A DNA stretch of 64,000 nt from a virus (taxonomy: Duplodnaviria > Caudoviricetes): IMG/VR virus record IMGVR_UViG_3300010344_000600, positions 18,039 to 82,038 of that record; one strand, given 5' to 3'. This document shows, piece by piece, positions 3-40,486 of the stretch (the stretch's first letter is position 1; each line of letters opens with the position of its first letter). The notes beneath the pieces are model-generated. The model saw only the letters and a list, made by a program, of their open reading frames with translations, ran no database searches and was not told the origin of the DNA. The position numbers and the translations under genes were made by a program.

Positions 3-3000
3 GATCCTATTGCCATTGCCGAAGCACAGACACAAGCCAGGGTCGATGCAGCCCGCGCCGATGAACAGCGCACGGCCGCCCGCAACCTGATTCGTGATCG
101 CGTAGCGCATGGCTACACGGAAATCAAGGATGGCGCCCTGCTCAACCCGAAAACCGGGGCGACGCATCCGCTGAACAATCCGGCCGAATTCCTGGTGGCG
201 CACAACGCACTGCGCAATCGCATCGATGAAGCGGCGCATACGGCGGCAACCAGCCATCAGAACGACCTCACACAACCAAGCGACGCACAGAAAGAAGCGG
301 GTAACTATGCCAAGGGTCATGTTGAATGGAACGGGCTGAACCTGGCGATCGAGAACCCAAAGGGCTCTGAACGTTCAGGAACCGACCCAAATGGGAAAGC
401 CTGGTCGGTAACCATGCCCGGGCATTATGGCTACGTTAAGAAGACCCTTGGCGCCGATGGCGATCAAGTGGATTTGTACCTGGGTAATGCGCCGCACAGC
501 AAAAAGGTGTTTGTCGTCGACCAGATCGACGCTGATACCGGAAAGTTCGATGAGCACAAAGCAATCGGCAACGTGCGCGACGAGGCTGAAGCAACCAAAC
601 TCTACGATGCCGGATTCTCCGATGGCAAGGGGCCACAACGGCGCGGCGCCATTACCGAAATGAGCGTTGACCAGTTTAAGGACTGGGTGAAGAAAGGTGA
701 TACGACGAAGGCTCTGGCTTACAAAGTGCCAAATATGGCACCTTCGCCAAAGGAATCTGCACGCAGTAAGCCACGCCTTGGCGAGTCTCCGCAAGAGGTC
801 TGGGCCGCGATCAAGGCCGCCAACGGCGGAATAATCGTCAATGGCCGCACGGCGCGCCCAGCGATCCGCGTTCCCGGGCTCACCGGAACCTTCAGCCTGG
901 CCAACGATTTCACGCTCGACAAGCTGGTCGCTGGCGGAAAAGGCTTGATCAAGGCAACCCGCGAAGAAAACAAGGCGGTCGATGCCGCTGTCGATCAGGA
1001 CCGGGCTGAAGTCGTGGCCATGTCGCAATGGGGTCAGCACGCCGGCGACAAGAACGGAAACCAGAAGGTTATCCAGGTCCTGCACTCACCCTCCGGTAAT
1101 TCCTATCAAACCCAACCCAACCCCACTCAACCCGAGGAAAACAATGCCACAATCCCGGAAGCCGCTCAAGCCATCGAAGCAGAAGCGCAAGGATCGGAAC
1201 AACAACCCGCCGTTGAAAATGACGAAAGCCGGTTTGTTGCTGCCGCGGCTGAACTGGGCCTAAGCCCGTTCAACAATAACCCAAACATTCAGGCGCGGTA
1301 CTTTGGCCCCTATAACCGAAGCGGTGAGTTGATTGAAAAAGAGACCGTCGTCTCGCTGAATCGCAACCCCGATGAGAGAGTATTTCCTTATCGGCTTATG
1401 CACGTCAATATGGTCAGCAAACCGCAGATATCGCTTGTCGATAAGCGTTTCAAGACACTTTCTGATGCGGTTGAAGCGACTCGTGAAGCCTTGGTTGTGG
1501 CTGAGAAGAACGCCCCTACTGAAAACAAGGACGCTGAAGTTAGCGCTGAATTCAACCAGGAGGCAACTGAATCCGCGCCTGGTGAAATAAATACAGATAT
1601 TGCAGAGAATGCGCAAAATCCTGTTGCAAACGAGGATGATGCACAGAATACCGCTTCAGAACTGCCCTTCGGTATCGAGATCAAGTCTTTCCAGCACACC
1701 AAAACCGGAGAAACCAAGTTCGCTGTCGTCGTTCCCGTCCGCACATCGAGCGAGGACTATCAGACACTCAACAAGACAGCGATCAAGCACCGCGGGCGCT
1801 ACTCGTCGTTCAAGGGGTCCGGCGCGGTGCCGGGATTCCTGTTTGGCAGCAACGAGAATGCGGTTGCCTGGGCGAATGATCCGGCGGTCGCGGGGGTGTT
1901 GAAGGGGTATGAGAAGGCCGACGAAACAAAGAGCGAGGCGGCGACCCCGAAAAAGCCTGAAGAAAGCAACCAGGAGCGCAGCTTTCGTAAATGGGGGGAG
2001 AACTACAACACCGTCGTCAACACGGCTGATCTGTCGTCGGTATCCCTTGCCGACCTCGAACGCGCCGATAGTTGGGCGGACAGCTTCATTGCATCAGAGC
2101 GGAGGAAGGGATGGGACGGTGGCGCCGTCAATGAAACTATCATCAATGCCATGGCGCCCGACGTGGCGGCGATCAAGGCCGAGTTATCTAAGCGCTATGC
2201 CGAGCGCGATGCGCGGTTGGAAAGTGCAAAGACCGGCGCTGTTCTGGCCAAAGCCGGAAGCATTCTGCTGGACGAGTACGGCGAAAACGAATGGTCTCTT
2301 GATGCCGACTTAATTGACGATGTTGCAGCACGGAATTATGTAACGATCCGCCAGGGAATGATGGGAGAACGAAAGCAGGCCGTTACTCCCTACGAAATCA
2401 AGAAGCGCATTGCTGAAGATGCGAAGTTCAGGGCCGAGCATCCGAACAAGTCGAAGGCAGAAGAAAACACCCCTTCGGCAAGTGATGCTGTTCCTACCGA
2501 AGCAACCCCCGCTTCGATACCCTATCAATACTTGCTCACTGGCGAACTATGGGACGCCATGAGCTACAGTCAGCACGAGGCGATTGCCAACGGCTATATT
2601 GGGGGCATGCGCGCTGTCGTACATCGTCTGTCAGGTTCCAAGTGGGCCGATATCGGACCGGGCGAACGGAAGTCGCTGCAGGAGTCCTACGACAAACTGG
2701 AACAACAGCGCGAGTCGAGCCGCAAGGCCGATGAATCGCAGGAAGTAGCCCGCGCCGCTGCCGAGGCCGAGGTTTTCGAGGCGATGCGCCAGGTTCCGGC
2801 CGTTATCAATGCGGCGACCAACAGCCCGCACAATTTAGATGTCGAGATCGAGCGCCAGGTAGCGCAGTGGCTTGGGGATCAAATACACGCGGCGGCGATT
2901 GCCGGCGATGGCGACCGGGCGCGGGCACTCTCCAGCCTACTGGCCGACAACAAGCCGGTACTGCCGCCATCCTTCTTCGAGGGGTTGAAAGAATCGCTCA

Positions 3001-6000
3001 AACAGGCTGAGGCGATCGACAAAGAGGATGCGCTGGCCGAAAAAGGACATGACCCGGCGAATCTCGCCTACGTTAAAGCCGAGCTACAGGCTGATCAGAA
3101 GGACGCTTTCCTGCAGGGATGGGCGCATGCCCTGGCCGGCAAGACGAAGTCGACGCTCCCGGGCAATGCAGCAGCGGCCAAGGGATACGATACCGCACGC
3201 GAATGGCTGACGACGCCGGAAGGGCGCGCAGCGTTCTCCGGAAAGCGGGCGAAGAAGCTGGAAAACACCGGGGCCGACCTGCGCCGCTGGTTCGACAAAC
3301 AGAAAGCCAAAATCCGCGATGATAGCGACAACGAAGCGGTGATTGCGGCGCTTGATCTGGCCACCGGCCGCGCCGACCTGATGCGCGGCATGGTCGCCGA
3401 TCTGGCAACTCCCGGAACGCTGCGCTGGATGGAGCAGATGCGCTACGGCGTGATGCCATTCAAGCAGTGGATTACCGAGCGCGGCATGCTACAGCGGTTA
3501 TACGGCCGAGTTGGTAACACGGATACGGCCCGCATGAGCCTCTACCTGGAGGGCAAGGCCTACCTGAAAGATGATCTGGAGAATCCGGACGCGCCGCGTT
3601 CGTTCTTTGATGAAATCAAACTGGCCAGCACTCGGGAACAACGGATTGCCAAGCTGCGTGACGCCGCACAGGAATACGCGACGCTGATGAGCCTGCTGAC
3701 CGACGGGGTAAGAGCCGCTGGTACCGTCGAGGAAGCGGCGCGCGCGCTGCAGTCCGTCCTGTGGGGCGACGAATCGCAGGAAATGACGTTCAACGTCTAC
3801 GACCAGAAGAACTACAGCGATACCGGGAAACTGGTAGCAACGCTGCTGTCGCACCCCGACCGTACCGCCTGGAGATTCGCGTGGAACGGCAAGAACCTGA
3901 GAGACCAGACCTACAGCCTGCGCGGACTGATCGATAAGGAGAATGATGCACTGACGACGACCAAGAAGGCGGCGCTGGTACCGCCTAGGCTGGATCACGT
4001 CGAGCGTACCGGTGAAGACTATCGCGGCGGGTCCAATGTCAGTCCGGAGCAGTTCAAGCGAAAATTCAACTTTGCCGACGTCGGTTTCGGAAAGTGGGTT
4101 AATTCTCGGCAGGATCAGGATCACTTGAATTATGCCTACGATGCTTTCCTCGATCTGGCCAAGTTGCTGAATGTTCCGCCGGAGTCGATCGCGCTCGGCG
4201 GGAAACTGCATTTCACGATCGGCGCGCTCGGACAAGGCAAGTTCGCCGCGCACTACGCGCCGTCGCAGCCGCATCCAGACGGAGGAACGGTACCAGTAAT
4301 CAATGTCACCAACACGCGCGGCGATGGCACGGTCGCCCACGAATGGGCGCATGCGATGGACCTGACCCCACAGGAGCGGCTGTCTGTCGAAGGGGATTAT
4401 GCGCATCTGGCGCGGGCGATCTCGATAATCAAGGCCGATCTCAAGTACGCCTATCACTTTGATGCAGTCAAAGCGGGCGTCATGCGCATGCTGGGCGGTG
4501 ATGCATGGTGGAAAGGCGACAAGCGATCGGCACAAACCGATGCCGGGCGGCTGGAAAACGCACGCCGGGCGATTGACTACTACAGCGGAGCCAGTCACCA
4601 GCTTTCGACGTACTACAAGGAGGCTATTAAGCTCGACGGCAACAAGACCAAAGACCCGTACTGGTCGAATGATCTGGAGTTGTTCGCCCGCGCCTTTGAA
4701 GGCTGGACTGGCGACGCGCTTAATGGCACGTCAACCTACCTCGTCAACCCGGAATGGTCCGGCGAGGGCATGGTGACGGACAAGACGCACCGAGGTACGC
4801 CGTATCCCTTGGGCGAAGAACGTGAACGCTTTGCCCAATGGTTCGACGCCCTCGCCAAGTCGATGGTCTACGATGCAGAAATCAAAGCACTGCGCCTCGA
4901 TGCGTTGAAATGGGCCGAGAATCGGCCGAAGCATGGAGATGAGTGGAAAACGGCGCTCGATGATCTGCGCGCCTCGCTACCGGCTATTCTTAAACAGGTC
5001 AAGCAGGAGCAGGCCGAGAAAGAAGCGACAGAAAGCGCGGCGCGTGATGAGGCGCGGACGATGGCCGTCGGGGATGTGATTCGCGCGCGGCGCATGAATA
5101 ACGGGCTGTCCTCGCGTTTCCCTGATCCGTTAACGATCACCGCTGTCACTCCGACACCGGACGGCCTCGGCGTGCCGCGGATCTCATTCATGGTTGATGA
5201 CCCAGCCGGAGTAAAGCCGACCGAGCATACCTATACCGGCGAGTTCTTTGAGGTCATGGAGCGAGCAACTGATCGCGCGCTCAAGGAAGCCGCAGCAGCC
5301 AAGACCGAAGCAGAATCCAGTGCGCCAGCCATTGAGCCGACCGGAACACTGTCCGATACTGACTATGAAAGGCTGTTCGATGAAGCGGCGGCCGAACTGA
5401 GCGAAGCGGCAGCCGAACAACCGGAATCACCGGTGACGGCCGCGTTGCCTGGTGGATGGACGGTTGAGGACGTCAAGGAGATTCAGGCACTCGTCAACGC
5501 CGGAAAGATCGTTTTGGTGGCCGATGAGAAACTCGGCATACCGACCATTCACGACTTTTCTGGACGGTCGGCGCATCTTGGGTTTGGCACCTTCCGTCTC
5601 AGTACGCCGGAATTTGAAGTGCTGTTCGACGGCGGCGCGGCGATGCACAATACGCCATCTGGAAAAGGCTATACAGTCGTCCTGGTGAATAGCGGAACGT
5701 TCCCCTACGATGAGGCGGGCGTCAAGGCAACGCTGCAAGGGTTGCTGTCTGGAACCGGTACTGCCGAGACAGCCATAGCCGCAGAAGACAAGGGAAGCAT
5801 GCCGGAACCTGACGGCCAGCCGGACAAGAAAGACGAACAACCCAAGCCCGCCAAGAAGCCACGGCCCGGAAAACTACCAAAACTGGACGATCAAGTTCAA
5901 AAGACCGCATCAGCATTGATCGCCGACGCGGCCAAGATGGGCGTCAAGGGCGTCGACGAGGCGCTGACCGGACTCGTCAAACTGTTCGGTGGCGGGGCCG

Positions 6001-17962: not shown

Positions 17963-18381
17963 GGCGTTTCCCCAGTCACAATCGGCCCAGTCGCCACATT
18001 GATGCAATGCAGAAGTCTCCGGGTGCGGGCATTAAGCAGGCTTTGCAGCACTTGGCGCTCACCGGGCAGCAAATAGGTCCAGGACTGCTGCTCGTCGTAA
18101 GCATCGAAGAGCTTCTTCTCCAACGAGGAAATGCGCTCGATCAGCGCGCGCCGGTCACTGTCCTCGGTACGCTCGGCTTTGGGTTGGTCCGAGAACGCGG
18201 CAATGCGCTGGCCGAGAACCTCGGAAAGTTGGTGCATCAGTTCGGCTTGTTCGATCAGGCGATGGCGCTCCGGGCCGGGAAGAACCTCAAAAGGCGCGGT
18301 CCACAAGAAATCGGCCAACTTGCACAAGCGCTCGTCGAGTTCGCTCTTTTCTTTCACTACACGTTCTTGATAGGCTTCCAT
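17959..18381 (-). CDS. Phage hypothetical protein (crAss001_48-like N-terminus)
   Basis: YQERVVKEKSELDERLCKL..F...RLIEQAELM..LSEVLGQRIAAF pattern. Confidence 0.7.
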   Translation of the reverse strand: MEAYQERVVKEKSELDERLCKLADFLWTAPFEVLPGPERHRLIEQAELMHQLSEVLGQRIAAFSDQPKAERTEDSDRRALIERISSLEKKLFDAYDEQQSWTYLLPGERQVLQSLLNARTRRLLHCINVATGPIVTGETP

Positions 18382-34566: not shown

Positions 34567-35115
34567 ATGGATCGCACTCCGGTGTCAAAGAAAAAACGCT
34601 TCGACGTATTCAAGCGAGATTCTTTCACTTGCCAATATTGCGGAGCAACTCCACCCAGTGTCGTTCTTGAAGTCGACCATATAAACCCTGTGTCACTCGG
34701 GGGGAAAAACTCCATCGACAACCTGATTACAGCTTGTTTTAGCTGTAATAGAGGAAAGTCGGCCGGCCTTTTGTCGGACATACCGCAAACCCTGAAGGAT
34801 CGCGCAGAAGAAGTTAAAGAGCGCGAGTCACAGATCAAGGGATACAACGCGGTTCTAACAGAAAGAGCGACCCGCCTAACCAATGAAGCATGGGTTGTTG
34901 CTGCGGCTATTGAGGGAGAAGATTGGTTTGACGAGTTCAGCAAGGATGATTTGCAAAGCATAAAAAAATTCCTTGAAAAGCTTCCTGCTCAAGAAGTTAT
35001 CGAAGCCGCAGAGAGCGCCAACAGAAAGGTATTTGGCAATGTAGAAAGGCGGTTTCGTTATTTCTGCGGAATTTGCTGGAGCAAGATAATGGAGGCGGGA
35101 AATGGCTCGCGCTAG
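34567..35115 (+). CDS. HNH endonuclease
   Basis: RFDVFKRDSFTCQYCG..LEVDHINPVSLGGKNSIDNLITACFSCNRGK; start ATG 34567. Confidence 0.9.
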   Translation: MDRTPVSKKKRFDVFKRDSFTCQYCGATPPSVVLEVDHINPVSLGGKNSIDNLITACFSCNRGKSAGLLSDIPQTLKDRAEEVKERESQIKGYNAVLTERATRLTNEAWVVAAAIEGEDWFDEFSKDDLQSIKKFLEKLPAQEVIEAAESANRKVFGNVERRFRYFCGICWSKIMEAGNGSR

Positions 35116-36265
35116 AAATATCAAGCCAAGCTTTTTCATGAACGAAATTCTTGGAGAGGCAGACCCCGTAATAGGGCTTTTGTTTATCGGGTTGTGGTGC
35201 CTAGCAGATAGGGAAGGCCGGCTAGAAGATCGCCCAAGGAAGATAAAGGCAGAGCTACTTCCTTATCGTGATGGTTTGAACGTTGACGAGATGCTCTCAT
35301 TTCTTGCTCATCATGAGCTCATCATGAGGTACGAAATAGAAGGAATTAAGTACATTCAGATCAGCAAATTCTCAAAACATCAAACACCGCACCATCTGGA
35401 AGTTCCGAGTGTCATCCCGCCCCCAGAAGGCGAGGAAAACAAACTGAATCACACGCCAATCGGTGTTCCGCAGCGCAGAAGAATTTATGAACGCGACGGA
35501 TATAAATGTGTTCTTTGCGGGGCTGTTGACAACCTGTCTATAGACCACATAAAGCCCGTGTCTAAAGGCGGTGACAGCAGTGATGAGAACTTGAGAACGT
35601 TATGCAAACCATGTAATTCAAGCAAAGGAAACAGGGAAAAAGCAAGTAAAAAACATGAGCACAAGATGAGATCATCTAAAGCTCATGATGGCCAGAGCGG
35701 TTCTTATCCCACTGATTCCGGATACCTGATACCTGATTCACTGATACCTGATTCACTGATTCCGAGGTTTACCCCTACGCCGGAGCTTTCGACTCCAGAG
35801 ACAAAACCCCTACCGGCCGGCTCGCCGTCCGGACTGGAAAACCTGCCTGCGGTGATCGAACCACCCCCGCCTCCAGCCACTCTCCCCGAAGATACCGAGT
35901 TGCAAGCCGCCTGCAAGCGAACCTGGGCGGCCTACTCCCAAGCCTATACCAAACGCCACGGCGCAGAGCCCCTCAAGAACGCGACAGTGCGCAGCCAGAT
36001 CAAGCAGTTCGTGCAACGAGTCGGGCAAGCAGAGGCGCCGATGATTGCCGCCTTCTACGTCGGCCACAACTCGCGCAACTATGTCGCCAAGAAACACGCG
36101 GTTGGCCTGTTGTTGGCTAATGCCGAGACGCTGCACACCGAATGGGTGACCAACAACCCCGGCACGCAGGCACAGGCGACACAAGCCGACCGCACGCAAG
36201 CGAACTTCAACGCCGCCGAAGAGGCAAAACTGATTCTGGGAAGGATGCTCAGCAATGAGCCATAA
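35102..36265 (+). CDS. Phage replication initiator (O-like) with an in-frame HNH domain
   Basis: MARARNIKPSFF..LFIGLWCLADREGRLEDRP N-terminus; HNH CVLCG..IDHIKPVSKGG..NLRTLCKPCNSSKG; LIPDS repeats. Confidence 0.88.
   Translation: MARARNIKPSFFMNEILGEADPVIGLLFIGLWCLADREGRLEDRPRKIKAELLPYRDGLNVDEMLSFLAHHELIMRYEIEGIKYIQISKFSKHQTPHHLEVPSVIPPPEGEENKLNHTPIGVPQRRRIYERDGYKCVLCGAVDNLSIDHIKPVSKGGDSSDENLRTLCKPCNSSKGNREKASKKHEHKMRSSKAHDGQSGSYPTDSGYLIPDSLIPDSLIPRFTPTPELSTPETKPLPAGSPSGLENLPAVIEPPPPPATLPEDTELQAACKRTWAAYSQAYTKRHGAEPLKNATVRSQIKQFVQRVGQAEAPMIAAFYVGHNSRNYVAKKHAVGLLLANAETLHTEWVTNNPGTQAQATQADRTQANFNAAEEAKLILGRMLSNEP
35711..35763 (+). repeat. Tandem CTGAT(A/T)C repeats inside the O-like gene (candidate lytic origin)
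   Basis: actgattccggatacctgatacctgattcactgatacctgattcactgattcc. Confidence 0.55.
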
Positions 36266-36944
36266 GTCGCCCTCTGCGCAGGACGAGGTGATCGCGGCAA
36301 TTGCCGTCGCTGCGGAGTTGACGCAAACGACCATGAGCGCGGTGGCCATGGCGGTGCTGGCGCGCGACCTGATCCGCTTCTATCCGGTGTCGCGCATCCT
36401 GGCGGCGCTCGATCGCTGCCGGCGCGAACTGAAGTATCCGATGCGTCAGTCCGATGTCGAGCAGTTCATCCATACCGACGACGGACGGCCAGGGCCTGAC
36501 GAAGCATGGGGTATCGTGACGGCTGCCTTTGACGAAGCGGTAACGGTGGTGACCAACGGCGAGATACAGGAGGCCATGGCCACCGCGAAGCCGGTCATGG
36601 ACGGCGGCGACAAGATCGGCGCGCGGCGCACGTTCATCGAAACCTATTCGCGGATCATCAAGCACGCCCGCGATAACCGCTTTCAGCCGCCCAAGTGGTT
36701 TGTTTCGCTAGGGGATGACAAGTCGGGCCGTGCTGAACCGGTGCGCAAGGCGGTAGAGCAAGGGCTGTTGAGCCGGGAGCAGGCGGCGGTCTACCTGCCG
36801 TCGCCAGTGATCGACGAGGATGCGCGGTGCGGCGCGGCGATCGCTGGATTGCTGACGGGAAAGGTCGTTGAGTTTCCCAAGGACCCGGCGATCCGTGCGC
36901 GGCTGGCCAAGATGGCGGATGTGCTGAAGGCGGGGAAGCGATGA
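36255..36944 (+). CDS. Replication P-like/helicase-loader-type protein (DUF6475-like)
   Basis: RILAALDRCRREL..., GRPGPDEAW; follows the O-like gene. Confidence 0.7.
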   Translation: MSHKSPSAQDEVIAAIAVAAELTQTTMSAVAMAVLARDLIRFYPVSRILAALDRCRRELKYPMRQSDVEQFIHTDDGRPGPDEAWGIVTAAFDEAVTVVTNGEIQEAMATAKPVMDGGDKIGARRTFIETYSRIIKHARDNRFQPPKWFVSLGDDKSGRAEPVRKAVEQGLLSREQAAVYLPSPVIDEDARCGAAIAGLLTGKVVEFPKDPAIRARLAKMADVLKAGKR

Positions 36945-38752
36945 ACTACCTCAGCGTCTGCTCTGGAATCGAAGCCGCGACGTGCGCATGGCGTCCGCTT
37001 GGGTGGAAGCCGTTCGCCTTTTCGGAGATCGAACCCTTCCCCAGTCTGGTTCTCGATCACCACTACCCAGACGTGCCGAATCTGGGCGACATGACAAAGT
37101 TCAAGGAGTGGCCTGATGCAACTATCGATGTTCTCGTTGGAGGAACTCCATGTCAGTCATTTAGCATCGCCGGAATGCGAAAAGGACTGGATGACCCGCG
37201 TGGCAACCTCATGCTTACCTACGGTGCCATTGCTGCAAAGTATCGGCCCCGATGGCTGGTATGGGAGAACGTCCCCGGCGTCCTGTCGAGTAACAGAGGG
37301 CGAGATTTTGGAACCTTCCTCGGGATGCTGGTGAACCTCGGGTATGGGTTCGCCTACCGGGTTCTTGACGCTCAATACGCCGGCCTGGCACAGCGACGCC
37401 GCCGTGTGTTCGTTGTCGGACATCTTGGAGACTGGCGACGTGCCGCAGCGGTACTTTTTGAGCGCCACAGCCTGTCGGGGAATCCTGCGCCGAGCCGAGA
37501 AAAGGGGAAAGGAGCTTCCGGAAGCGCTGATGGATGCATTGTTGGCAGTATCTGCGCAGATAGCCACCCCGGATCATACAGCGGACAAGATGCATACACC
37601 GGACGCTTTATCTGCCATTCGCTTCGTGGCGAAGGTTTCGACGCCAGCGAAGACGGGACCGGCCGCGGAACTCCTTTGATTGCCATTCAAGGCTCGATGA
37701 TCGGTCGATCTGAGCTATCTGGACCGGCCGGTCCAGGATGGTCTGACGATGGCGTGAGTTTTACCCTTACCAAGACTGACCAGCACGCTGTCGCCTTCGC
37801 GCAAAACCAGCGAGACGAAGTGCGGTTGATGGACGTGGCTGGATCTCTGGCCGCTGAACCGGGGGCGAAGCAGCAAACCTACGTAAAGGGAGGAATGAAG
37901 GTGCGCCGGCTGACGCCAAAAGAGTGTGAAAGATTGCAGGGCTTTAATCCGGTTCTGGATATTGTGAGGATCGAAGGATGTTTCGACCATCAAAAGAAAA
38001 ATGCGACTGTGGAAATACAAAGTCACAGGTTGCAAAGCAGTGCTTGGAATGCCGCCGAAAGCGATTATCTGAAATTTGCCAATACTGCGGCAAAGAATTC
38101 TATTACGCGCCAAGCCGGAAAAGGGTTACATGTAGCCCTGTATGCGCATCAATGCTTCGAGGCAAATCCTCTGGTGTTACTCAGATCAGACGGCGCGTTG
38201 AAATCAAGTGCGAGCAGTGCGGAAAAACGCAATTGGTCCCGAAGTCTTATCAAGGAAGAAGATTTTGCAGCGTCAATTGCTCTGCATTGGGAAAGTCTGG
38301 TGAAAAAAACCACTCATGGAAAGGCGGAATTACAGCAAAGCATCAGTCTTTCTTTTCTGGACGAGAGTGGAAAAGCAAGTGCAGAGAAGTATGGAGAAGG
38401 GAGCGAGGCAAGTGCCAGCGCTGCGGATATCGATGTGATAAGGGAGAGGTTCATCACGTCGCATCTTGGGCGCGTAACGCCGACTTGCGACTCACCGAAA
38501 GCAACCTCGCTCTGCTCTGTTATCCGTGCCATAAGTTTGTTCATTCCAAACGAAACATCAGCCGAGAGTTTCTGCTTCGACCTCGTTCTTGAGCGCGACT
38601 ACACAAACATCCTCGTTCGCGGAAAGCCTGCTGCCGATGGGCCGAGATACAAGGCTTTGGGGAATAGTTTTGCGGTCCCTGTGGTTCGGTGGATAGGTCA
38701 AAGAATCCAACAAGTGGAGGATGCATGTTCATCTGCAAAAGCTGCGGTATAG
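36941..38752 (+). CDS. dcm: C5-cytosine DNA methyltransferase with an in-frame ~215-aa insertion
   Basis: CSGIEA (I), GGTPCQSFS (IV), WENVPG (VI), QRRRRVF (VIII), RRLTPKECERLQGF (IX), insertion, then DYT...GPRYKALGNSFAVPV (X). Confidence 0.93.
   Translation: MNYLSVCSGIEAATCAWRPLGWKPFAFSEIEPFPSLVLDHHYPDVPNLGDMTKFKEWPDATIDVLVGGTPCQSFSIAGMRKGLDDPRGNLMLTYGAIAAKYRPRWLVWENVPGVLSSNRGRDFGTFLGMLVNLGYGFAYRVLDAQYAGLAQRRRRVFVVGHLGDWRRAAAVLFERHSLSGNPAPSREKGKGASGSADGCIVGSICADSHPGSYSGQDAYTGRFICHSLRGEGFDASEDGTGRGTPLIAIQGSMIGRSELSGPAGPGWSDDGVSFTLTKTDQHAVAFAQNQRDEVRLMDVAGSLAAEPGAKQQTYVKGGMKVRRLTPKECERLQGFNPVLDIVRIEGCFDHQKKNATVEIQSHRLQSSAWNAAESDYLKFANTAAKNSITRQAGKGLHVALYAHQCFEANPLVLLRSDGALKSSASSAEKRNWSRSLIKEEDFAASIALHWESLVKKTTHGKAELQQSISLSFLDESGKASAEKYGEGSEASASAADIDVIRERFITSHLGRVTPTCDSPKATSLCSVIRAISLFIPNETSAESFCFDLVLERDYTNILVRGKPAADGPRYKALGNSFAVPVVRWIGQRIQQVEDACSSAKAAV
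37946..38590 (+). mobile_element. Dual-frame homing-endonuclease insertion in the MTase gene
   Basis: Lies between QGF and ERDYT; ~645 nt (ends uncertain by a few codons); visibly more AT-rich than the flanks; no stop in the MTase frame. Confidence 0.8.
37978..38592 (+). CDS. Multi-zinc-finger HNH endonuclease nested out of frame in the MTase gene
   Basis: Own RBS (GAGGA/GAAGG); CxxC fingers, GEKNHSWKGG, CQRCG..EVHHV..NLALLCYPCHKFVH. Confidence 0.9.
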   Translation: MFRPSKEKCDCGNTKSQVAKQCLECRRKRLSEICQYCGKEFYYAPSRKRVTCSPVCASMLRGKSSGVTQIRRRVEIKCEQCGKTQLVPKSYQGRRFCSVNCSALGKSGEKNHSWKGGITAKHQSFFSGREWKSKCREVWRRERGKCQRCGYRCDKGEVHHVASWARNADLRLTESNLALLCYPCHKFVHSKRNISREFLLRPRS

Positions 38753-39318
38753 AAAAACCGTGCTCTGACTACCGTATCCACAAAAAAGGCTATCGAATCG
38801 GCAAGTGCCGCGAGTGTGAGCGCGCATATCAGAGGGAATTTTCACGGCGCGACCCAGAGAAATATAGGGAGCGTAAGCGCCAGTCAATGGCAAAGATACG
38901 GGCCGCAGACCCGGAGGCTGCGCGCGCTTATAGTCGTGAATACCATCACGCAAACCGCGAACATCAACTAGCGAAGATGCGCGAGTACCAATCAAGGCGG
39001 TTCTTCTGGTCGCGCGCTAAGAAGTGCCTAGGCGCTACGGTACATGCAGCAGAATTATCCAAACTTTGGAAGATACAGCGCGGACGCTGCGCTCTAACTG
39101 GACGGAGGCTTGATAGAACGGCGCAAGTTGATCACAAAATTCCGCGCGCTAAAGGTGGGAAGGACGAAATTGAAAATCTTCGATGGGTTTGCGCTGAAAT
39201 AAATTATGCGAAGCGCGACATGTCAGACGATGAATTGCTTGATATGTGCTTGGATTGCATGTCTTGGATAGGCCGCAGGATTGCGATGGTTGATGCGCGG
39301 AAGGATGAAAAGTCATGA
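38725..39318 (+). CDS. HNH endonuclease overlapping the MTase 3' end
   Basis: RBS GGAGG, ATG 38725; CALTG..QVDHKIPRAKGG..NLRWVCAEINYAK. Confidence 0.85.
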   Translation: MFICKSCGIEKPCSDYRIHKKGYRIGKCRECERAYQREFSRRDPEKYRERKRQSMAKIRAADPEAARAYSREYHHANREHQLAKMREYQSRRFFWSRAKKCLGATVHAAELSKLWKIQRGRCALTGRRLDRTAQVDHKIPRAKGGKDEIENLRWVCAEINYAKRDMSDDELLDMCLDCMSWIGRRIAMVDARKDEKS

Positions 39319-39854
39319 GCCGCATAACCCTTGTTCGCAGTGCCGACCCAATGCCCGGGGAGCCCATCCTCGTGGCGGTGCGCGGATTCCTGTTCGGCTT
39401 GTTCGATGGCTGGAACAAGGACGACAAGATCGGCTGGCGAAAATTATGGGCGCGCTTGTTGGCGCTGGCGCCGGGGGAGTTTGCGGTTGTTGAGTTTGTA
39501 ATTCCCAGAAATGCAAAGTTTCACCGAAAGTTTTTCTCAATGCTGAACTTCGCTTTCGATTCATGGGAGCCAAAGCGGACGCGGAAAACCTACAAGGGAA
39601 AAGAGGTAGTCAAGAACTTCGAGCGATTCCGCAAAGACGTTTTGATTATGGCCGGGTTCTATGACCAGACGTTCGATCTGCGGGGAAACATGAAGCTTGA
39701 GGCGCACAGCATTAGTTTTTCAAGCATGGATGACGCGGAGTTTGAGCAGGTCTATTCCGCTGTTGCAACGGTGATTATTGAGCATGTTCTGACGGGCTAC
39801 TCCGGCCGCGAAGAGTTTGATCGTGTTGTCGAGAAGATGATGGGGTATCTATGA
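39315..39854 (+). CDS. DUF1367-like nin-region protein
   Basis: PRNAKFHRKFF..L..AF, FRKDVLIMAGFY, SISFSSMDDAEF. Confidence 0.8.
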   Translation: MSRITLVRSADPMPGEPILVAVRGFLFGLFDGWNKDDKIGWRKLWARLLALAPGEFAVVEFVIPRNAKFHRKFFSMLNFAFDSWEPKRTRKTYKGKEVVKNFERFRKDVLIMAGFYDQTFDLRGNMKLEAHSISFSSMDDAEFEQVYSAVATVIIEHVLTGYSGREEFDRVVEKMMGYL

Positions 39855-40486
39855 AGTTGGAAGACTTTTCTGGACAGCGTTTTGGCAGGCTTTCTGTGAT
39901 TTCAAGAACTGAGAAAGGAGGGAAGTATGTTCGCTGGTCTTGTGTGTGCGATTGCGGGAACTTCGCCACTGTTTCATCGACGCATCTGAAAACTGGCCAT
40001 ACCAAAAGCTGCGGCTGTGTTCGCAACGAGATTGCTTCCGACCGAGCAAGATCAATGGCCAAGCATGGCATGTGGAATACGCCAGAGTGGAATTGCTGGA
40101 AGGCAATGAAAGACAGATGCCTTCGGAAAACTCACAGCAAATACCATCTTTACGGAGGGCGAGGGATAACGGTTTGCCAAGTGTGGATTGATTCATTTGA
40201 TATGTTTTTTGCTCACATAGGCCATCGTCCAGGTCCGTCTCATTCAATCGACAGGATCGACTCAAGCAATGGATATGAACCAGGAAATGTTCGATGGGCA
40301 GACAATTTCCAACAAAACAACAACAAGCGAAACAACGTAACAATTGAGGTTGACGGTGTTTCGATGACTGCCGCCGAGTTGTCTCGGCGCTTTGGGATAA
40401 CTCACCGCGCGGCTGTTTACAGGATTCGGAATGGCTTGCCGATTGGGGGAGAAAATGAGAATCGACCAACCTCCGACCGCGTGTGA
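39851..40486 (+). CDS. HNH homing endonuclease
   Basis: GQRFGRL, WSCVCDCG, YGGRGITVC..W, SIDRIDSSNGYEPGNVRWA..QQNNNKR. Confidence 0.9.
   Translation: MKLEDFSGQRFGRLSVISRTEKGGKYVRWSCVCDCGNFATVSSTHLKTGHTKSCGCVRNEIASDRARSMAKHGMWNTPEWNCWKAMKDRCLRKTHSKYHLYGGRGITVCQVWIDSFDMFFAHIGHRPGPSHSIDRIDSSNGYEPGNVRWADNFQQNNNKRNNVTIEVDGVSMTAAELSRRFGITHRAAVYRIRNGLPIGGENENRPTSDRV

Follow-up and report, generated by a model that had tools for sequence, protein, structure and literature searches.

How does a gene remain readable when a second gene, written in another frame, lies inside it? This question is raised by a C5 cytosine DNA methyltransferase (MTase) gene in a stretch of 64,000 nucleotides (nt), hereafter termed the window, which spans positions 18,039 to 82,038 of the virus record IMGVR_UViG_3300010344_000600 (Duplodnaviria; Caudoviricetes). 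The full IMG/VR record comprises 82,038 bp, is rated 100 % complete by CheckV, and was assembled from activated-sludge metagenomes. Between conserved motifs IX and X, the MTase gene contains an element that encodes an HNH homing endonuclease out of register with its host, and the MTase frame passes through this element from end to end without a stop codon. It is likely that the arrangement represents an unspliced HNH homing-endonuclease gene that resides inside the MTase gene and is read through in the frame of its host.

A comparable situation has been described in actinophages. An enigmatic, stop-free insert within methylases of these viruses was presented in 2023 as the ‘ShiLan domain’ (PMC9957025), and in 2025 Arsenault, Gosselin and Gogarten reported, without experiments, that the ShiLan insert conceals an HNH in another frame and shows no detectable sign of an intron or intein (PMC11855218). 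A search of the literature recovered no further paper that uses the term ‘ShiLan domain’, or that describes an out-of-frame HNH homing endonuclease within a methyltransferase.

Conservation of the stop-free host frame

The MTase frame is +1 relative to the HNH frame and, across positions 37940–38610, contains 0 stops, compared with nine in the third frame and six to 11 in the reverse frames. The chance of such an open frame in a single allele was assessed by holding the HNH protein fixed, redrawing its synonymous codons and counting host-frame stops. For the window allele, the stop-free fraction is 2.3 % with the codon usage of the open reading frame (ORF) itself, 0.7 % with that of the neighbouring genes, and 0.07 % under uniform synonymous usage. 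A preliminary description of this DNA had put the chance at (61/64)^215, approximately 3e-5, which proves too optimistic because the sequence is already constrained to encode an HNH, a fact that a uniform-codon figure ignores; the conditioned simulations give 0.007–0.02. One trace of codon choice is seen at valine, for which GTG accounts for 0/11 codons in the HNH and 30/89 in neighbouring genes. On its own, the open frame of the window allele is suggestive and no more.

The significance of the open frame comes instead from the family as a whole. Homologues were retrieved by their HNH only, using an alignment of 16 HNH proteins from which HNH-frame peptide patterns were derived, and with which genome, viral and metagenome contigs were scanned; as the patterns concern the HNH frame alone, retrieval is independent of the host frame. 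The metagenome scan by itself returned 488 stretches encoding an HNH relative. Alleles more than 90 % identical in DNA were removed; the embedded alleles display 37–66 % HNH identity. At almost all loci with an HNH match of at least 140 residues, a PF00145 MTase ends just before the HNH and resumes just after it, with the frame relation constant. Expected stops were obtained by resampling each allele's own synonymous codons, an expectation that is conservative because this usage already reflects any avoidance of stops.

Among the 36 alleles from genome and viral contigs there are 0 host-frame stops where 86 are expected, and the +2 frame contains 477 (495 expected). The 63 alleles from metagenome contigs similarly display 0 host-frame stops (155 expected), with 935 in the +2 frame. 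When pooled, 99/99 non-redundant embedded alleles are stop-free in the host frame, against approximately 241 expected stops, and the third frame contains 1412. Products of the per-allele probabilities, at approximately 1e-45 (genome and viral) and 1e-79 (metagenome), overstate the independence of the alleles, but the direction of the effect is not in doubt. Frequent stops in the MTase frame of homologous inserts, which the preliminary description had named as an observation that would count against its proposal, are thus absent, with 0/99 alleles having even one.

As a control, 42 more distant relatives, matching in the HNH domain only, contain 330 stops in the equivalent frame over 10,003 codons. 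Free-standing relatives therefore show host-frame-equivalent stops at a normal rate, and the sole stop-free example among the 42 (L060) is itself embedded in another methylase. At a further locus, L051 (3–2300, +), the HNH is a remnant (1574–2176) with two stops, at codons 7 and ~91, and the C5 MTase frame is open over 766 amino acids (aa). Across the alleles compared, these counts show the host frame to be held open by strong selection against stops, which implies that ribosomes must traverse the insert in the MTase frame. Such a need would be expected if the enzyme requires motif X on one polypeptide with its other parts.

Boundaries and reading frames of the insert

Searching with the 603-aa MTase returns two kinds of homologue, namely uninterrupted proteins of approximately 380–460 aa, and long forms of 588–723 aa that align over 98–100 % of the query. 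The long forms have their extra sequence at one place, after motif IX (ECERLQGF, usually followed by P) and before (D/G)YT..P.R.K...DGPRYKALGNS, which constitutes motif X. Empty alleles L100 and L101 read GFPD-DYT or GFPD-GYT at this point, and further empty homologues are P0015, P0024, P0046 and P0093. In very close filled and empty pairs (P0002 versus P0046/P0049; P0007 versus P0093), the insert has replaced or broken up the two codons that separate GFP from YT; in the window, codons 336–552 stand where empty alleles have the dipeptide PD (Table 1). Alignment with uninterrupted homologues thus confirms the ~215 extra codons originally noted between motifs IX and X, and places the ends first given for them within two codons of the truth.

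The 204-aa HNH, likewise proposed from the outset to lie in another frame with its own ribosome-binding site, is found as such. Its Shine–Dalgarno-like AGGA recurs at the same 7 nt spacing in L004, L019, L021, L039, L040, L044 and L056. The HNH frame opens at 37948 in the window and, in many alleles, 0–3 codons before the ATG. As the TAA at the 5′ junction closes the HNH frame upstream, there is almost no room for a frameshift fusion of MTase and HNH; fusion of the MTase N-terminal part to the HNH by frameshifting was considered as a candidate and rejected, the HNH frame being closed 0–10 codons before the ATG in most alleles. At the 3′ side, the TGA stop of the HNH falls inside the host codons CTT GAG, two codons ahead of DYT. 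The insert extends beyond the HNH ORF by 32 nt on the 5′ side and approximately 4 nt on the 3′ side (at most about 35 nt).

Table 1. Features of the interrupted MTase gene, in window coordinates
Feature	Position	Strand	Basis
C5 MTase ORF, 603 aa, complete, read through the insert	36941..38752	+	PF00145, E 6.6e-45 over residues 1-336
N-terminal part of the MTase, with motifs I-VIII, the variable target-recognition region and motif IX (..ECERLQGF)	36941..37945	+	Alignments
Inserted element: 217 host-frame codons in place of dipeptide PD, net +645 nt	37946..38596	+	Filled versus empty alleles
TAA in the HNH frame, exactly on the 5′ junction	37945..37947	+	Sequence
Shine–Dalgarno-like AGGA, 7 nt before the HNH ATG	37967..37970	+	Sequence
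HNH homing-endonuclease ORF, 204 aa: three N-terminal Cys4-type zinc-finger units and a C-terminal zinc-bound HNH domain	37978..38592	+	PF01844, E 5.4e-10
HNH catalytic core, residues 146-190	38413..38547	+	Pfam stretch; 5H0M alignment
C-terminal part of the MTase with motif X (DYT...DGPRYKALGNS), in frame with the N-terminal part	38597..38752	+	Alignment of filled and empty alleles

The methyltransferase host

In a Pfam search of the 603-aa ORF, the PF00145 match ends at MTase residue 336 and covers only positions 1–290 of the 324 in the profile. Motifs I, IV (PCQ), VI (ENV), VIII (QxRxR), IX and X (GNS) of the family are nevertheless all present in order, with motif X located after the insert. 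An alignment of 85 sequences shows PCQ (70–72), ENV (109–111), QRR (151–153) and GNS (574–576) to be invariant. Beyond the insert, Y554, T555 and D566–L573 are nearly invariant and G574, N575 and S576 wholly so, in the 24 filled and 61 empty proteins alike. Related loci examined by tblastn have the MTase C-terminal part in the same frame after the insert, and this part is in frame with the N-terminal part at every locus where both were detected, with the exception of L034. Within the alignments, purifying selection is shown to act on both the HNH frame and motif X.

At the exceptional locus (L034:1692-3769), the N-terminal part of the host lies in a different frame from the insert and C-terminal part, and the insert itself is stop-free. 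The position of this shift, upstream of the insert, points to a frameshift or an assembly error. The nearest named relatives of the MTase in a protein search belong to Sphingobium, Massilia, Burkholderia and Achromobacter, and the phages concerned are apparently proteobacterial.

The HNH endonuclease

The match of the HNH ORF to PF01844, a family with the beta-beta-alpha-metal fold, scores 39.7 bits, compared with a gathering cut-off of 21.4. Alignment of the HNH proteins reveals 43 invariant columns, including the Cys pairs, H159, H160, N176, H185 and H189; C146, C149 and C184 are also invariant, and C181 nearly so. An AlphaFold2 (AF2) model of the HNH, built from only 16 sequences, has a mean predicted local distance difference test score (pLDDT) of 86.7. 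The best match of its catalytic domain in the PDB is the HNH of phage GVE2 (5H0M), with a root mean square deviation of 1.4 Å over 72 columns, a TM score of 0.66 by target and 26 % identity. No close HNH homologue was found in any cultured phage in a tblastn search of 50,697 phage genomes.

Further HNH genes lie in the vicinity. A second HNH ORF (window 38689–39318, likely ATG near 38725; PF01844/PF14279) overlaps the last MTase codons, and displays weak similarity to the embedded HNH (27 % over 64 residues). Additional HNH-bearing ORFs are located at 35102–36265, inside a replication-initiator-like protein, and the ORF at 39851–40486 returns no Pfam match. With this gene content, the region resembles a hotspot for homing endonucleases.

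The host-frame reading of the insert

Two tests were used to examine the peptide that the host frame specifies within the insert. Codon identity at conserved HNH residues is no higher than in the single-coding N-terminal part of the MTase at equal protein identity, and pairwise identity in the host frame exceeds a synonymous-permutation null by 0.040, compared with 0.033 for the untranslated +2 frame. As both are negative, the filler peptide is, on comparison of the alleles, without detectable amino-acid constraint beyond being stop-free, and would represent a by-product of the HNH sequence that is filtered only for the absence of stops. The term ‘dual-coding’, as first applied to this region, consequently holds in a weak sense only: the host frame is indeed stop-free throughout the HNH, but no amino-acid constraint is detected on its reading.

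An AF2 model of the 603-aa protein has pLDDT values of approximately 88–95 for residues 1–170, 80–86 around motif IX and 84–94 after the insert, with most of the insert below 60. Within the insert, a beta-hairpin is predicted at MTase residues 338–365 (window 37952–38035; pLDDT ~80–86), in a region that overlaps the ribosome-binding site and the conserved HNH N-terminus. Its interpretation as a selected structure was dropped, both tests of sequence constraint being negative; the confidence of the model here is probably due to conservation in the alignment that stems from the overlapping ribosome-binding site and HNH N-terminus.

Distribution and mobility

With regard to the distribution of the element, a tree of the MTase core mixes filled with empty alleles and requires 17 changes of insert state, compared with 21 for shuffled labels. 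Loci L001 and L020 are 79 % identical in their HNH and 48 % identical in their MTase. The nuclease may thus be much more alike between two loci than the genes that harbour it. The patchiness, the very close filled and empty pairs and the decayed copy at L051 together fit the homing-element cycle of gain, fixation, decay and loss, as far as can be judged from these alleles.

The HNH is also present in a very divergent C5 MTase clade (L005, L052, L056 and L057), the N-terminal part of which is 17–22 % identical to the others. In these four, the junction reads ..Y[VEI]I[ED].. instead of ..YT.IP.., and the HNH is approximately 50–54 % identical to main-clade alleles, which suggests that it has moved between distant hosts. 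The same arrangement is seen in a different methylase superfamily at L060, where a 186-aa PF01844 HNH ORF (L060:2764-3324) lies out of frame within a 667-aa PF01555 N6/N4 methylase ORF (2498–4501, +) that contains 0 host-frame stops; the HNH domain is 45 % identical to that of the window.

Some hosts harbour a second kind of insertion. The host ORF of L051 also carries an intein splicing domain (PF14890), and L052:758-3715, as well as L053 and L058, encodes a C5 MTase of 986–1141 aa with both a Hint-domain intein (PF13403) and an out-of-frame HNH insert. Cluster J mycobacteriophages carry a related C5 MTase, which in Mycobacterium phage Dove (L104, PQ184790.1:62903-64350) is annotated as two adjacent coding sequences, gp107 (249 aa) and gp108 (117 aa); the next gene, gp109, encodes a small HNH. 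From this layout, gp107 and gp108 may represent a split or interrupted variant of the MTase.

Proposed mechanism

Under the reading that we favour, a free-standing-type HNH gene with its own ribosome-binding site and ATG would have entered the MTase gene at the short loop that joins motifs IX and X, carried by neither an intron nor an intein. With an element length that is a multiple of three, and an HNH ORF displaced by one base from the host reading frame, ribosomes on the MTase would read straight through the 645-nt element and then resume motif X. The approximately 215 residues thereby added would make up a linker, largely disordered and not under selection, that protrudes from the folded enzyme as a loop, and the absence of a stop codon in the host frame would be the sole adaptation of the element to its host. 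The nuclease would be made separately, by internal initiation in the other frame, and presumably cuts insert-free alleles at the conserved GGNTTCCCNGAYGAYTAYAC region, whereupon repair would copy the element in (homing). We infer that read-through yields an active enzyme, that the HNH starts at its own ATG and that it cleaves the empty site.

Several points weigh against this reading. The evidence for production and activity of the 603-aa protein, for translation of the HNH and for cutting of the empty site is indirect. Avoidance of stops demonstrates that translation across the insert matters, which is not formally the same as a working MTase. An open frame would also be advantageous if it spared downstream genes from polar effects, although the conserved motif X speaks for a functional enzyme. 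An insertion of 215 residues beside the S-adenosylmethionine (AdoMet)-binding motif X could impair the enzyme, and the AF2 model of the insert, being of low confidence, cannot settle the matter. With regard to mobility, the MTase tree on which the state changes were counted is poorly resolved, and only three changes are forced by well-supported branches. Divergence of the HNH and of the MTase is correlated (Spearman 0.61), from which it appears that much of their history is vertical, and that some of the patchiness could be due to loss of the element and not to its gain. Finally, the lower G+C content of the insert is weak evidence for recent arrival, because low G+C runs on into the downstream genes.

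Alternative explanations

The open frame could have been retained for reasons other than the enzyme, if the interrupted MTase were inactive and the frame served translation as such, avoiding polarity or mRNA decay that affects the HNH or downstream genes. An insertion of this size beside motif X may well harm the enzyme, and such MTases are often dispensable for phages, as argued for ShiLan (PMC11855218). Despite this, DGPRYKALGNS (motif X and its flanks) is invariant or nearly so in the 24 filled as in the 61 empty alleles, the upstream catalytic motifs are conserved too, and ribosomes translating the HNH ORF would already occupy the region and so oppose polarity. We therefore regard loss of MTase function as an unlikely basis for the open frame.

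A self-splicing intron, of group I, group II or an unorthodox type, would require a ribozyme that overlaps the HNH ORF, and would render the open host frame incidental. HNH genes are a common cargo of phage group I introns (PMC11855218), and insertion into a highly conserved coding motif is also what is seen with intron homing sites. A spliced intron, however, has no need for 99/99 alleles to be stop-free where approximately 241 stops are expected, and known phage introns usually contain early in-frame stops, LittleE being an example (PMC11855218). Moreover, the few nucleotides outside the ORF (~32 nt and ~4 nt) leave little besides the HNH itself, and neither an Rfam intron family nor a conserved secondary structure is apparent. 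An Rfam search of positions 37700–38900 at E ≤ 10 identified no intron family and only one chance sRNA match, outside the insert, whilst the RNAalifold consensus over 13 aligned inserts amounts to only −6.1 kcal/mol across 759 columns, with no conserved fold. Both results uphold the earlier view that this is not a recognisable intron. A search of sequencing runs found none recorded as RNA that contains the stretch. Exact contigs from four wastewater runs, labelled cDNA but probably DNA, bridge the 5′ junction (37904–38053) and the 3′ junction (38503–38652 and 38535–38667), with no joint that skips the insert; as contigs, and probably of DNA, they give no firm indication on splicing either way. 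An intron is, in our estimation, highly improbable.

Removal at the protein level is similarly hard to credit. Here the host-frame reading would be a non-canonical protein-splicing or self-cleaving element, or would be removed by a protease, giving a mature MTase without the insert. In its favour, such removal would account for the host frame being kept open, true inteins occur in several of these MTases (L051, L052), and AF2 pairs beta strands at the insert ends (residues 338–365 and 543–552) with moderate confidence. Nevertheless, a Pfam search of the 603-aa protein returns only PF00145 and no Hint or intein domain, and the same search detects the true inteins in L051 and L052. The insert ends, NPV.../...LVLER-D in the window, vary across alleles (I, S, T, P ... 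P, D, G, H, R), at the first insert residue as well as at the first residue after it, with no conserved Cys/Ser/Thr and no terminal His-Asn; the judgement already made from the window alone, that this is not an intein, is therefore sound. A catalytic fold would also be expected to leave a trace, whereas the host-frame peptide is conserved no more than the +2 frame, and the HNH shows no extra conservation at synonymous sites compared with the single-coding part of the MTase.

Lastly, the idea that the open frame arose by chance, from an HNH sequence poor in Leu/Val/Ile/Met codons within a pseudogenised MTase, draws on a single-allele probability (0.7–2 %) that is not negligible in a scan of many windows, but is refuted by the family data, in which all 99 alleles are stop-free, the control frame and free-standing relatives contain stops as expected, and GTG valine codons are missing from the HNH.

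Relationship to known systems

The likeness to ShiLan, raised when the window was first described, lies in architecture (PMC9957025; PMC11855218); as the window HNH is not detectably related to any mycobacteriophage HNH at E ≤ 1e-3, its element is best regarded as an analogue of ShiLan and not as a demonstrated relative. In both, an insert of approximately 200 codons without a host-frame stop occupies a conserved site of a phage DNA methylase, is absent from close homologues, and is filled almost entirely by an out-of-frame HNH ORF whose stop lies at the 3′ edge. Neither has an intron or intein signature, both have a disjunct distribution, and the host methylases can also carry inteins, with ShiLan gp65 containing both.

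In contrast, the window element has N-terminal zinc fingers and a C-terminal HNH, whilst that of ShiLan has a central HNH flanked by zinc fingers; the former starts at an ATG preceded by a Shine–Dalgarno-like AGGA, and the latter at a GTG without a ribosome-binding site. No mycobacteriophage match to the window HNH was found at E ≤ 1e-3 (tblastn, 50,697 phage records; the ShiLan record itself was not compared pairwise), and a search seeded with the cluster J mycobacteriophage C5 MTase returned cluster J phages only. The window host is a PF00145 C5 MTase interrupted at the junction of motifs IX and X. The window family occurs in metagenomic phages, with proteobacterial nearest named MTase homologues, whilst ShiLan is an actinophage. 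Approximately 10 ShiLan alleles have been described, without a statistical test, which the 99 alleles assembled here now provide. Pacc40 gp60 (PMC11855218) offers a second, unrelated case of an out-of-frame nuclease-like ORF in a methylase, with free-standing relatives beside the methylase in other phages; it differs in its helicase-methylase fusion host, its site and its less certain HNH assignment.

Other homing systems share some of these features. HNH nucleases of group I introns, such as I-HmuI of Bacillus phage SPO1 (PDB 1U3E), also interrupt conserved phage coding motifs, but are accompanied by a ribozyme of approximately 200 nt or more, are spliced out and do not keep the host frame open; the window has no detectable ribozyme. 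Inteins with homing-endonuclease domains are likewise inserted in frame at conserved motifs, are translated with the host protein, and co-occur with the HNH insert in L051 and L052. Their nuclease is, however, in the host frame and Hint excises it, whilst that of the window is out of frame and lacks Hint motifs and splice residues. Free-standing phage homing endonucleases (T4 seg/mob; mobE-type) resemble the window element as self-contained ORFs with their own translation start and no splicing element, but are intergenic or divide the host gene so that two polypeptides result, whereas the window HNH is inside a continuous host ORF. The GVE2 HNH (5H0M), although the nearest solved fold for the catalytic domain, is a 92-residue single-domain packaging protein without an N-terminal zinc-finger array, and is not embedded in a gene.

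Implications

Hidden HNH genes have now been paired with methylases in the C5 family, in the PF01555 host of L060, in ShiLan and in Pacc40. It is conceivable, if rather doubtful, that this pairing is functionally coupled and not mere tolerance, for example if the MTase shields the carrier genome from HNH cuts. Were that so, the arrangement would constitute a compact mobile restriction-modification-like addiction or exclusion module directed against competing phages, in which obligatory read-through ties both activities to one transcript.

For annotation, gene callers report such ORFs as long ‘DNA cytosine methyltransferases’, and thereby miss the nuclease. The window family is much larger than the ShiLan set and apparently belongs to phages of Proteobacteria, with the result that read-through, MTase activity with a looped-out insert of 215 residues, and homing should be open to test in E. 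coli by standard means.

In the textbook view, homing endonuclease genes reside in introns, in inteins or between genes. A fourth mode of residence, proposed only in 2023–2025 from approximately 10 actinophage genes, would be that of an unspliced resident of a coding sequence, which spares its host by keeping the host frame free of stops. To this the present analysis adds a large and separate family, quantitative evidence of selection for the open host frame, and the indication that nothing else is selected in the filler.

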